Source: a virus (Duplodnaviria; Heunggongvirae; Uroviricota; Caudoviricetes). From it: a DNA stretch of 14,385 nucleotides. Of the stretch, positions 1,734 through 4,410 are shown in pieces (the first letter of the stretch is position 1; each line of letters begins with the position of its first letter). Both the position numbers and the translations under genes were made by a program. The stretch spans positions 1 to 14,385 of IMG/VR virus record IMGVR_UViG_2713896833_000003, one strand, 5' to 3'. Under the pieces are notes generated by a model. It was not told where the DNA came from. It searched no databases and was given only the letters and a program-made list of their open reading frames with translations.

Positions 1734-2942
1734 ATGTCGGTTTTTCATAACTGGCTGCTTGATATCGCAAGCGGGAATTACTTTATCTACATCAAACGCC
1801 TTTCTGCAAACGACACAGGCGCAACAGGTGGCCATCAGGTCGGACTTTATATCCCCTCAAATATCGTTGAAAAGCTTTTTCCATCTATCAATCATACTCG
1901 CGAACTGAACCCTTCAGTCTTCCTTACTGCGCATGTATCATCCCATGATTGCCCTGATACCCAAGCACGCGCAATTTATTACAACAACCGTTATTTTGGT
2001 AAGACCCGAAACGAAAAAAGAATTACGCGCTGGGGGAGAGGAAGTCCATTACAGAACCCTGAAAATACAGGAGCCCTCACAATTCTTGCTTTCAGGTTAA
2101 ACGAACAGAACACTGACTGTTCCGAGGTAGATATATGGGTCTGCGTCAATCCCGATGAAGAGGATATCATCGAGTCTGCTATTGGCGAAATCATACCTGG
2201 AACCCTAATTTCCGGCCCTGCCGGACAAATTTTGGGCGGATTGTCTCTTCAGCAAACTCCAGTAAATCATAAATATGTTATTCCTGAAGACTGGAAGAAG
2301 CGTTTTCCTTCTGGAAACGAAATTATTCAATATGCTGCTGGCCATTATGCTAAAAACTCCAAGGATCCAGATGAGCAACTGATTGACCGTCGGCGTGTCG
2401 AGTATGATATTTTTCTACTCGTCGAGGAATTACATGTTCTTGATATTATTAAGAAAGGATTCGATTCTGTAGATGAGTTTATTGCATTAGCCAACTCTGT
2501 CAGTAATCGACGTAAATCAAGGGCAGGCAAATCACTTGAACTTCACCTAGAGAAGCTTTTTATCGAGCACGGACTACGGCATTTCTCCACTCAGGCAGTT
2601 ACTGAAGGTAATAAAAAACCAGATTTCCTGTTTCCTTCAGCAGAGGCATATCATAACGTTGAATTTCCTGTAGAAAACTTACGTATGCTGGCAGTAAAGA
2701 CCACCTGCAAAGATCGCTGGCGTCAGATACTGAATGAAGCAGATAAAATCCATCAGGTACATTTATTTACACTGCAAGAAGGTGTTTCTTCAGCACAATA
2801 CCGAGAAATGAAAGATGCGGGTGTCAGACTCGTTGTACCATCAACTTTACATAAAAAATACCCAGAAGCAGTTAGAGAAGAATTAATAACGCTCGGAGCA
2901 TTCATTACTGAGCTGATAGAGCTTTACGCTGAACTATCATAG
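1734..2942 (+). CDS. ecoRIIR: Type IIE restriction endonuclease, EcoRII-like (N-terminal effector DNA-binding domain plus C-terminal PD-(D/E)XK catalytic domain)
   Basis: 404-aa ORF (1728..2942); ATG at 1734 has better SD spacing (AAGGGA then 5 nt) and gives 402 aa; convergent with an adjacent Dcm/M.EcoRII-family methyltransferase; N-terminus MSVFHNWLL... resembles EcoRII as I recall it. Confidence 0.75.
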   Translation: MSVFHNWLLDIASGNYFIYIKRLSANDTGATGGHQVGLYIPSNIVEKLFPSINHTRELNPSVFLTAHVSSHDCPDTQARAIYYNNRYFGKTRNEKRITRWGRGSPLQNPENTGALTILAFRLNEQNTDCSEVDIWVCVNPDEEDIIESAIGEIIPGTLISGPAGQILGGLSLQQTPVNHKYVIPEDWKKRFPSGNEIIQYAAGHYAKNSKDPDEQLIDRRRVEYDIFLLVEELHVLDIIKKGFDSVDEFIALANSVSNRRKSRAGKSLELHLEKLFIEHGLRHFSTQAVTEGNKKPDFLFPSAEAYHNVEFPVENLRMLAVKTTCKDRWRQILNEADKIHQVHLFTLQEGVSSAQYREMKDAGVRLVVPSTLHKKYPEAVREELITLGAFITELIELYAELS

Positions 2943-2976
2943 GCTGACTCCCGGCTTAAAAGGCCGGGAGATGTTC

Positions 2977-4410
2977 TCAAGGCTGCCCAGTCTTACCAGC
3001 ATCAGCAGAAACAGCTTTGAGGATATAGGGTTCCAGAAGTCTGGCAACAGCTTCAAATACTGGCACCACAACTGAGTTACCGAACTGCCGATATGACTGA
3101 GTATCTGAAACCGGAATACGGAATGGTTTCCCTCCAGGTTTTTCAAATCCCATAAGGCGTGCGCACTCTCGGGGAGTCAGCCTGCGTGGTCGACGAGCCT
3201 GATTACTCTCATTCATAAAGTCAGCCTCTCCCGTTGCCATATCCCAACCACGATCAATAAGAATTTCTGATCCGTCTTTGTGATATCTGGCAGAAAGTGT
3301 GCGTGCAATGCTTTCCTTATTCTCAGGATTGACCAACCCAAAGCCAAAACCATTCCCCTTGGCTGCATGCTTTTTGGCGTAGTTATAAAGGTACTCCCAT
3401 AGTTTTGGCGTAAGTATATATTTACTGTCGACTACAGGCTCCAGCAATTCACCAAATGATGGGCGGTGTTCCGGATAAAAACGACTGATATCACGCAAGG
3501 TAAACCCCTTGTGAATATTCAGATCTCGTCTAAATCCGACCAGAACAATGCGTTCACGATGCTGAGGCAAAAAATGCTTCCCATCGATAATCTTTGGATC
3601 GTTTTTTCCCATTTCTGCAGCATCGGCAACTTCGTAGCCCAGCTCGTCAAGGGTCTCCATAATGACTTTGAAAGTTTTACCCTTATCATGGCTCTTCAGA
3701 TTTTTGACATTTTCCAGCACAAAAATTGCCGGTTTTTTTGCTCGTATAATACGTGCCACGTCAAAAAAAAGTGTTCCTTGTGCTTCACATTCAAAACCAT
3801 GCGCACGACCAAGTGAGTTTTTCTTACTAACACCAGCAAGGCTAAATGGCTGGCACGGGAACCCCGCAAGAAGCACATCATGATCCGGCACATGCTCATC
3901 AATATATGCATAAGCATCCGTTTCCAATACATCGGTTTTATCACTCAGCGTGACTTCCCGAATATCGAGATTGAATTTATGCACCTGTTCATCGTTAAAC
4001 CAGTTGGCCTTGTATGTACGCACAGCATCTTTATTCCATTCACTGGTAAAAACACACTGGCCTCCAATGGCCTCAAAACCTTTCCGTATCCCTCCAATTC
4101 CAGCAAATAAGTCAATGAAGCGGAAAGCATATTCCGGATGGTTTGCAGGTGGTTCTGGTAGCATCTTACGCAGAAGAGACTCTTCTACTGAAGTCAACGA
4201 TTTTGGTAAACACTTGCCATTAATCCAGCGGTTAATGGTTTCACGGCTCCACTCATTTTTTCCGACTTTTCTCAGTAATTCAGCCACATACTTCTGATCA
4301 TAGATTTCCAGCACTTTCTCGATAAGCTTTTTATCATTTTCCTGTCGCAGCTTTTCTTCCGCCTCGGCTTCCTTCAGCAGATGCTGTGCCAACACTTCAA
4401 ATTCAGACAT
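2977..4410 (-). CDS. ecoRIIM: DNA (cytosine-5) methyltransferase, Dcm/M.EcoRII family (CCWGG-specific by family)
   Basis: C5-MTase motifs [15 protein letters not shown] (motif I), [11 protein letters not shown] (motif IV), FVLENVKNL (motif VI), QFGNSV; ORF extends to 4452 but the ATG at 4410 is preceded by GGAGG and gives 477 aa beginning MSEFEVL, typical of Dcm/M.EcoRII. Confidence 0.9.

Follow-up and report, generated by a model that had tools for sequence, protein, structure and literature searches.

An EcoRII-type restriction-modification pair as attachment-site-proximal cargo in the remnant of a temperate phage

Why restriction-modification (R-M) systems of the EcoRII type persist in Escherichia coli, where about 99% of strains carry the isospecific methyltransferase Dcm, is an old question, which is sharpened by two genes found in the virus record IMGVR_UViG_2713896833_000003 (Caudoviricetes), as Dcm should cancel the addiction effect of such a pair and most of the barrier that it raises by restriction. 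The stretch analyzed here (14,385 nt; hereafter, the window) is the entire draft contig LJGI01000073.1 (assembly GCA_001282375.1), and its left part encodes an endonuclease (R) and a cytosine methyltransferase (M). We consider it very probable that these two genes constitute a functional EcoRII-type (Type IIE) R-M system with the target CCWGG, carried as accessory cargo in the region proximal to the attachment (att) site and distal to the integrase of a temperate phage, of which a 14-kb deletion remnant is left at thrW. The system itself is an ordinary and well-understood kind of bacterial defence, i.e., a close allele of a textbook enzyme that is annotated in hundreds of genomes, and R-M systems of this kind are common in E. 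coli prophages; the interest of the locus lies in documenting a phage-borne EcoRII lineage long diverged from the plasmid lineage, and in providing a clean example of a defence module that moves between phages along with a piece of the att site.

The endonuclease and methyltransferase genes

R and M are convergent, with stop codons 34 nt apart, and lie in a cassette that is homologous to the EcoRII R-M system found on plasmids of incompatibility group N (IncN). The features of the pair are as follows.

1734-2942, + strand: ecoRIIR-like gene for a Type IIE restriction endonuclease, 402 aa (Pfam, 1NA6 and residue check)
2977-4410, - strand: ecoRIIM-like gene for a C5-cytosine methyltransferase, 477 aa (PF00145 and PF18284)
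1666-4492, no strand assigned: EcoRII cassette proper, homologous to the IncN-plasmid EcoRII R-M system (79.5% nucleotide identity, 2828 nt)
2948-2970, no strand assigned: GC-rich 10-bp hairpin between the convergent stops (from folding)
4411-4492, - strand: conserved 5' region of M (from IncN conservation), the presumed promoter/operator for autoregulation of M

A sequence-only reading of this DNA had described a convergent pair of a 402/404-aa EcoRII-like endonuclease and a 477-aa methyltransferase, a description with which the open reading frames (ORFs), the RefSeq copies and the Pfam matches all agree. The ORF of R, taken from an upstream ATG, covers 1728-2942 (+) and encodes 404 aa; a well-spaced, Shine-Dalgarno-like AAGGG is located 6 nt 5' of the ATG at 1734, and the RefSeq start for identical copies of R corresponds to the 402-aa form. 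R is full length and free of internal stops, and the endonuclease is hence not disrupted. Its product shows the two-domain architecture of a Type IIE enzyme, with a B3-like effector domain in the N-terminal part (EcoRII-N, PF09217, residues 18-165, 3.9e-61) and a PD-(D/E)XK catalytic domain in the C-terminal part (EcoRII-C, PF09019, residues 229-393, 2.4e-71), matches the PADLOC profile REase_II (1.9e-234), and aligns with the EcoRII crystal-structure sequence 1NA6 in a gapless and colinear manner over residues 1-403 (E=3e-243). It is 87.1% identical, by tblastn, to the copy on the IncN plasmid NZ_CP027050.

The functional residues of EcoRII, as taken from DNA-bound structures (PMC2770665), provide a more stringent comparison; all 27 of the published catalytic and DNA-contact residues are identical in R (404-aa numbering). 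The active site is intact, with four of four residues at the same positions (E271, D299, K324, and E337), and the 23 residues involved in readout of CCWGG are likewise all identical, including the CC:GG readers K328, D329, R330, and N260, the pocket for the flipped central A/T base (R222, E225, Y226, F229, R265, and A266), and 13 contacts made by the effector domain (N28, H36, Q37, Y41, R81, Y85, K92, T93, R94, E96, R98, T100, and R101), among which are the T:A readers N28, Q37, Y85, and R98. On the strength of these matches, R can be classed as a true EcoRII orthologue and not as an enzyme of the Ecl18kI/SsoII/PspGI type (CCNGG/CCWGG); the latter enzymes share with R the fold of the catalytic domain and the K-D-R recognition motif, but they do not have the EcoRII-N effector domain and match R weakly (E about 1e-4).

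For M, a GGAGG is present 5 nt upstream of the start of the 477-aa form, which agrees with the annotated copies in RefSeq, and no internal stops were found. The protein matches DNA_methylase (PF00145; 4.7e-78), the repressor-type N-terminal domain DNA_meth_N (PF18284; 7.1e-27) and the PADLOC profile MTase_II (3.8e-230), and the motifs of 5-methylcytosine (m5C) methyltransferases are all in place, i.e., motif I (FAGIG) at 102, IV (PCQ) at 185, VI (ENV) at 233, VIII (QHRER) at 283, and X (GNS) at 444. M is 90.6% identical to M.EcoRII from the IncN plasmid and 66% identical to Dcm from K-12, and its target-recognition region, located between motifs VIII and X, is almost the M.EcoRII sequence, with scattered substitutions only. 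The nearest solved chains, 3ME5 and 3LX6, have been deposited merely as "Cytosine-specific methyltransferase". Upstream of M, approximately 80 nt are conserved with the corresponding region of IncN EcoRII, and similarity ends there, a pattern consistent with a conserved control region. The frame of M is open further upstream, to an ATG at 4452 (491 aa); the 14 additional in-frame codons (4411-4452) are also open in the IncN EcoRII allele and may represent a conserved leader or a part of the protein.

The sequence-only reading had assigned the CCWGG target by family, and the 27 identical residues and the 1NA6 match of R, along with the closeness of M to M.EcoRII, bear this out as far as sequence can show. 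For M, the assignment appears robust since Dcm and M.EcoRII both methylate CCWGG despite being far more diverged from each other than M is from M.EcoRII. A different specificity, such as the CCNGG of Ecl18kI and SsoII, might be suggested by the distant PDB matches of R to Ecl18kI and PspGI, as this fold serves several CC-N-GG specificities; with the proposed A/T-discriminating pocket (R222, E225, Y226, and F229) and the T:A readers of the effector domain conserved, and with the variable region of M nearly identical to that of M.EcoRII, we regard this alternative as extremely unlikely.

Comparison with IncN EcoRII (R.EcoRII, PDB 1NA6/3HQF/3HQG, and M.EcoRII) also allowed for an assessment of the pair as a unit. 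Both systems have the same convergent order, with a gap of 34 nt here and of 33 nt on the plasmid, the same protein lengths (404/402 and 477 aa), the same domain architecture and all known catalytic and recognition residues, and the blocks upstream of both genes are conserved in the window, the cassette taking in approximately 60 nt 5' of R and approximately 80 nt 5' of M. By contrast, the proteins have diverged by about 12% (R) and 9% (M) of amino acids, nucleotide identity is 79.5% with synonymous sites saturated, and GC content is lower in the window system (42-45% vs. 48-49%); moreover, the IncN system is found on conjugative plasmids, whereas the lineage in the window is found on temperate phages, next to att. 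The ratio of nonsynonymous to synonymous divergence (dN/dS) from the IncN allele is 0.047 for R and 0.033 for M, with a dS of about 1.7, and ranges from 0.03 to 0.07 when computed domain by domain; strong purifying selection has thus acted on both genes, and the constraint extends to the N-terminal domain of M and the effector domain of R. Strains KKa014 and Z1323PEC0011 encode an R protein identical to that of the window, while that of a phage-like circular record described below differs from it by two residues. The pair thus consists of adjacent intact genes of matching predicted specificity, both of which are constrained, and represents a phage-borne EcoRII lineage that is old and has evolved independently. 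Gene integrity, family membership, conservation of functional residues and purifying selection are observed directly here, as is the cargo position described below.

The segment between the two stop codons folds stably (-32.2 kcal/mol, z = -3.1, for 2915-3005), and the hairpin at 2948-2970 is flanked by a T-run on neither side and is hence not a canonical terminator; a bidirectional transcription stop is possible. The window as a whole contains 29 CCWGG sites, suggesting that the element relies on methylation for its own safety. Avoidance of CCWGG was considered and rejected; 4 sites fall into 1-5347 and 25 elsewhere, with approximately 7 expected in the left part according to a hand estimate from base composition.

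Three points weigh against the reading of a functional pair on an integrated element. First, about 12% of R residues differ from the characterized EcoRII, and altered kinetics or regulation are hence possible. Second, a consensus scan found no convincing sigma-70 promoter for R or M; matches were no more numerous than in shuffled sequence, and none was convincingly placed for either gene. Third, integration can only be deduced from other genomes, as the junctions are not visible in a contig that terminates within a repeat. The second point, together with a strong, terminator-like hairpin at 1627-1650, just to the left of R, and with the natural autoinhibition of EcoRII, could indicate that R is not expressed or not active in vivo, leaving the locus to act as a second, redundant Dcm-like methylase. 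We nevertheless judge this to be very unlikely, as R is full length with every catalytic and recognition residue retained, shows a low dN/dS across both domains, encodes the same protein in three independent genomes, and is preceded by approximately 60 nt that are conserved with the plasmid system. We thus favor a pair in which both enzymes are expressed and active, as would be predicted from the conservation of their genes.

The element and the origin of the module

The sequence-only reading had placed the pair on an integrated element, and the genes do lie inside an att-bounded, integrase-bearing element, the integration of which at thrW we infer from synteny with complete genomes. The features that define this element, and a fossil att region next to R, are as follows.

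1-64, no strand assigned: left att repeat (3' part of tRNA-Thr plus 21 nt) and left contig end; identical to 14322-14385
14322-14385, no strand assigned: right att repeat, in which 14343-14385 (-) is the 3' part of tRNA-Thr (thrW), ended by the contig end
13162-14325, + strand: tyrosine integrase of the element (Pfam Phage_integrase)
1473-1655, + strand: fossil att region of an ssrA-integrating phage (BLAST to ssrA and to phage LLS)

The two repeats match attL and attR of thrW prophages in complete genomes. An Rfam scan of the window returned only a partial tRNA-Thr at the right end (27.8 bits, truncated at its 5' end) and a spurious microRNA match, and ARAGORN found no tRNA in the window. The integrase and att of the window are located at thrW, beside proA, in complete E. 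coli genomes, and syntenic genomes have the integrase annotated as a tyrosine recombinase beside tRNA-Thr. Strain KKa014 carries a full prophage of approximately 45 kb at thrW; window 1-5347 corresponds to the attL end of this prophage (99.94%) and window 5736-14385 to its early region and integrase end (99.97%).

The 64-nt ends of the window are 100% identical, whereas attL and attR of KKa014 differ at 3 of 64 positions, and related phage genomes have been deposited as circular "plasmids"; the contig could thus be a circular form, either excised or plasmid-like, rather than an integrated element. This seems quite unlikely to us, however, as repeats of exactly this kind are where a de Bruijn assembler breaks contigs, all virion genes are gone from the remnant, and the element is integrated at thrW in all complete genomes with this int and att.

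Missing from the window, relative to KKa014, are about 26 kb with the genes for tail, head, terminase and lysis. Two fragments of the KKa014 prophage are left around the breakpoints, at 5346-5561 (from a phage DNA-methyltransferase gene) and at 5549-5754 (from a DUF968 gene), so that the deletion joints are found at 5347 (2-nt overlap), about 5555 (13 nt) and about 5745 (19 nt). The comparison identifies the element as a deletion remnant in which att, int, the region for immunity and replication, and the R-M pair have been retained. Joint 5347 had no match in a search of one genome per species, no complete E. coli genome covers ≥80% of the window, and the exact contig was found solely as LJGI01000073.1, in two samples. 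The joints stitch fragments of CMoRE (the gene neighboring M, see below), of the phage DNA methyltransferase and of DUF968 to a RusA/LexA-like region and create a chimeric 228-aa ORF at 5272-5958 (-).

Several lines of evidence indicate that the pair is a mobile accessory module of the att-proximal region. The pair lies inside the att repeats, and in the complete prophage of KKa014 it is found between attL and the genes for the tail fibres, a position equivalent to the b region of lambda. The content of this slot differs among related phages; at their attL end, two related thrW prophages lack the pair and have either pseudogenes followed by CMoRE (NCTC9041) or an FRG-domain gene (N2456). Within the fossil att region, 1473-1500 represents the 3' end of transfer-messenger RNA, with 27 of 28 nt identical to K-12 ssrA by BLAST; the Rfam scan missed this 28-nt fossil. 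Positions 1473-1651 match the attP flank of the ssrA-integrating phage LLS (91% over 179 nt). A further degraded prophage, in strain CP8-3_Sichuan, carries the same R-M system at its end (M has the identical protein accession), where it directly follows the real ssrA gene. Furthermore, a 43.7-kb circular "plasmid" record with the gene content of a contractile-tailed temperate phage contains a segment with 98% identity to window 1372-5347, and the module lies there beside int/attP and a DinI-like gene. In the INPHARED set, no isolated phage carries the pair.

The fossil ssrA att, the presence of the module in unrelated phages and the existence of relatives free of the R-M pair thus support a separate acquisition, and the pair entered the thrW phage along with a scrap of the att site of another phage. 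Separate acquisition had also been proposed by the sequence-only reading, based on a region that looked AT-richer than the phage-derived part. While the conclusion holds, the argument from base composition is weak; the GC content of the pair is indeed 43.7%, as compared to 48.6% for 5348-14385, but the whole left 5.3 kb is equally low (43.4%), and values between 42% and 57% are found within the phage backbone.

A second slot for variable cargo, deleted in the window, is found in the related thrW prophages between the gene for the Q antiterminator and that for the phage DNA methyltransferase. NCTC9041 has an ATP-dependent (OLD-like) nuclease in this slot, N2456 a trio of DUF262, HEPN-like nuclease and m5C methylase genes, and KKa014 two hypothetical genes (coordinates in the compared loci, 13696-15147 in L008, 9220-12081 in L007, and 5463-6924 in L002).

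Dcm and the role of the pair

If the pair acts as its family does, M would methylate the inner C of CCWGG at position 5, and its N-terminal domain would repress the M promoter once sites are methylated; a review-level citation (PMC12707154, citing Som and Friedman 1994) has the N-terminal domain of M.EcoRII repressing its own promoter once the sites of the cell are methylated, with R unaffected. R would be a dimer whose catalytic domain is kept inactive by the N-terminal effector domain (autoinhibition) and becomes free to cut, before the first C, once a second and a third unmethylated CCWGG are bound. Methylated CCWGG would be neither bound nor cut; for EcoRII, methylation of either strand of CCWGG abolishes binding (PMC2770665).

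Dcm of K-12 belongs to the same m5C methyltransferase family as M, has the same N-terminal domain, shares the presumed target and methylated base, and functionally substitutes for M.EcoRII. Its identity to M is only 66%, however, and it is an orphan methylase whose gene overlaps with the vsr repair gene, the partner of M being an endonuclease. No Vsr family is among the Pfam matches listed for the products of the window, suggesting that repair of deaminated 5-methylcytosine (5mC) relies on the host.

The extent to which the pair and Dcm coincide was determined in 5426 complete E. coli genomes, with a feature counted where at least 80% of it was covered. By a dedicated dcm-vsr search, M and dcm having only short megablast-visible pieces in common, dcm-vsr was found in 5359 of these genomes (98.8%). 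The R-M locus (1400-4800) was present in 376 of 5426, and at least 309 of these carriers must therefore also be dcm positive. In E. coli, chromosomal Dcm would thus make the same mark almost everywhere, M would be largely redundant, and loss of the pair from a dcm-positive cell should not kill it.

These counts bear on whether the pair could be mainly a selfish addiction module, with post-segregational killing stabilizing the prophage remnant and explaining its survival despite the loss of approximately 26 kb. EcoRII post-segregational killing does occur in dcm-negative cells (reviewed in PMC3874152), and the R-M pair is intact even though the adjacent CMoRE gene is truncated and all structural genes are lost. 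On the other hand, one 2.7-kb segment surviving in one remnant would also be expected by chance or under selection for defence, and almost all E. coli genomes, including at least 309 of the 376 carriers, are dcm positive. That host Dcm can protect against killing of this type, as the sequence-only reading had stated, agrees with the literature, in which attenuation by Dcm is attributed to Takahashi 2002 as cited in PMC3874152. We consider an addiction module an unlikely explanation for the maintenance of this pair; in E. coli, the addiction effect is probably neutralized.

Defence is the other role that suggests itself, and the sequence-only reading had proposed that in a dcm-positive host the endonuclease would act purely as anti-phage defence. 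Here, "purely" is an overstatement, as Dcm of the donor abolishes EcoRII restriction of incoming plasmids. In conjugation experiments, EcoRII restricted nothing that came from a dcm-positive donor and acted, in a site-dependent manner, only on DNA from a dcm-deleted donor, and plasmid-borne dcm provided about 2700-fold protection from EcoRII (PMC11602122). As Dcm protects incoming donor DNA as well as the host, restriction would reach only DNA from dcm-negative or under-methylated sources. For lambda, Hattman reportedly found only "partial" protection by Dcm in 1973. Within E. coli, the ecological role that we infer for the pair is hence a limited one, in that it would be neither strongly addictive nor a broad barrier.

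The neighboring CMoRE gene and minor features

Beyond the 5' end of M, the window contains what is left of a second defence gene.

4817-5356, + strand: truncated PD-T4-3/CMoRE gene, cut at 5347 by the deletion

PD-T4-3/CMoRE (PDB 9U75/9U7U) is a separate single-gene system outside the EcoRII mechanism, namely a type IV GIY-YIG nuclease that degrades DNA with 5-hydroxymethylcytosine (5hmC) or glucosyl-hmC and neither binds nor cuts 5mC DNA (PMC12923530). An intact 257-aa copy matches the PADLOC PD-T4-3 profile end to end (7.6e-140). Of the 262 residues of PDB chain 9U75, the ORF in the window covers only 6-184, and it is cut after about 177 codons, with about 78 C-terminal residues lost; lacking part of the modification-sensing domain, its product is probably dead.

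In the same set of complete genomes, the CMoRE gene was found in 823 of 5426, the junction between M and CMoRE in 243 of 5426, and the junction between the fossil att and R in 248 of 5426. The near-equality of the two junction counts indicates that nearly every phage-type copy of the R-M pair is linked to CMoRE, whereas the 823 CMoRE genomes indicate that CMoRE also occurs alone. Candidates for the gap between the 376 R-M loci and the approximately 245 junctions are other contexts (e.g., the insertion-sequence-disrupted copy at ssrA) and possibly plasmid alleles.

As CMoRE ignores 5mC DNA, it is compatible with the methylase, and a tentative reading, which we regard as possible though rather doubtful, is that the EcoRII pair and CMoRE form a co-travelling "cytosine-state" defence cassette beside attP that is exchanged between unrelated temperate phages. 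EcoRII would clear DNA with unmodified CCWGG and CMoRE would clear DNA with hmC or glucosyl-hmC, with 5mC representing a common self-mark tolerated by both. In this remnant, only the EcoRII half of the two is intact.

Two further segments of the window were noted. A segment of approximately 1 kb (288-1299), to the right of attL and to the left of the fossil ssrA site, is present in KKa014 and absent from Z1323PEC0011; the ORFs in this region (380-568, 513-752, 602-868, 910-1134, and the overlapping 1220-1450) had no Pfam match. Finally, a long imperfect palindrome or iteron-like repeat with TCTGAC...GTCAAAA units, located at 7338-7412 inside a replication-type helix-turn-helix gene (6772-7713), gave rise to the spurious microRNA family match in Rfam and may be the replication origin of the phage.

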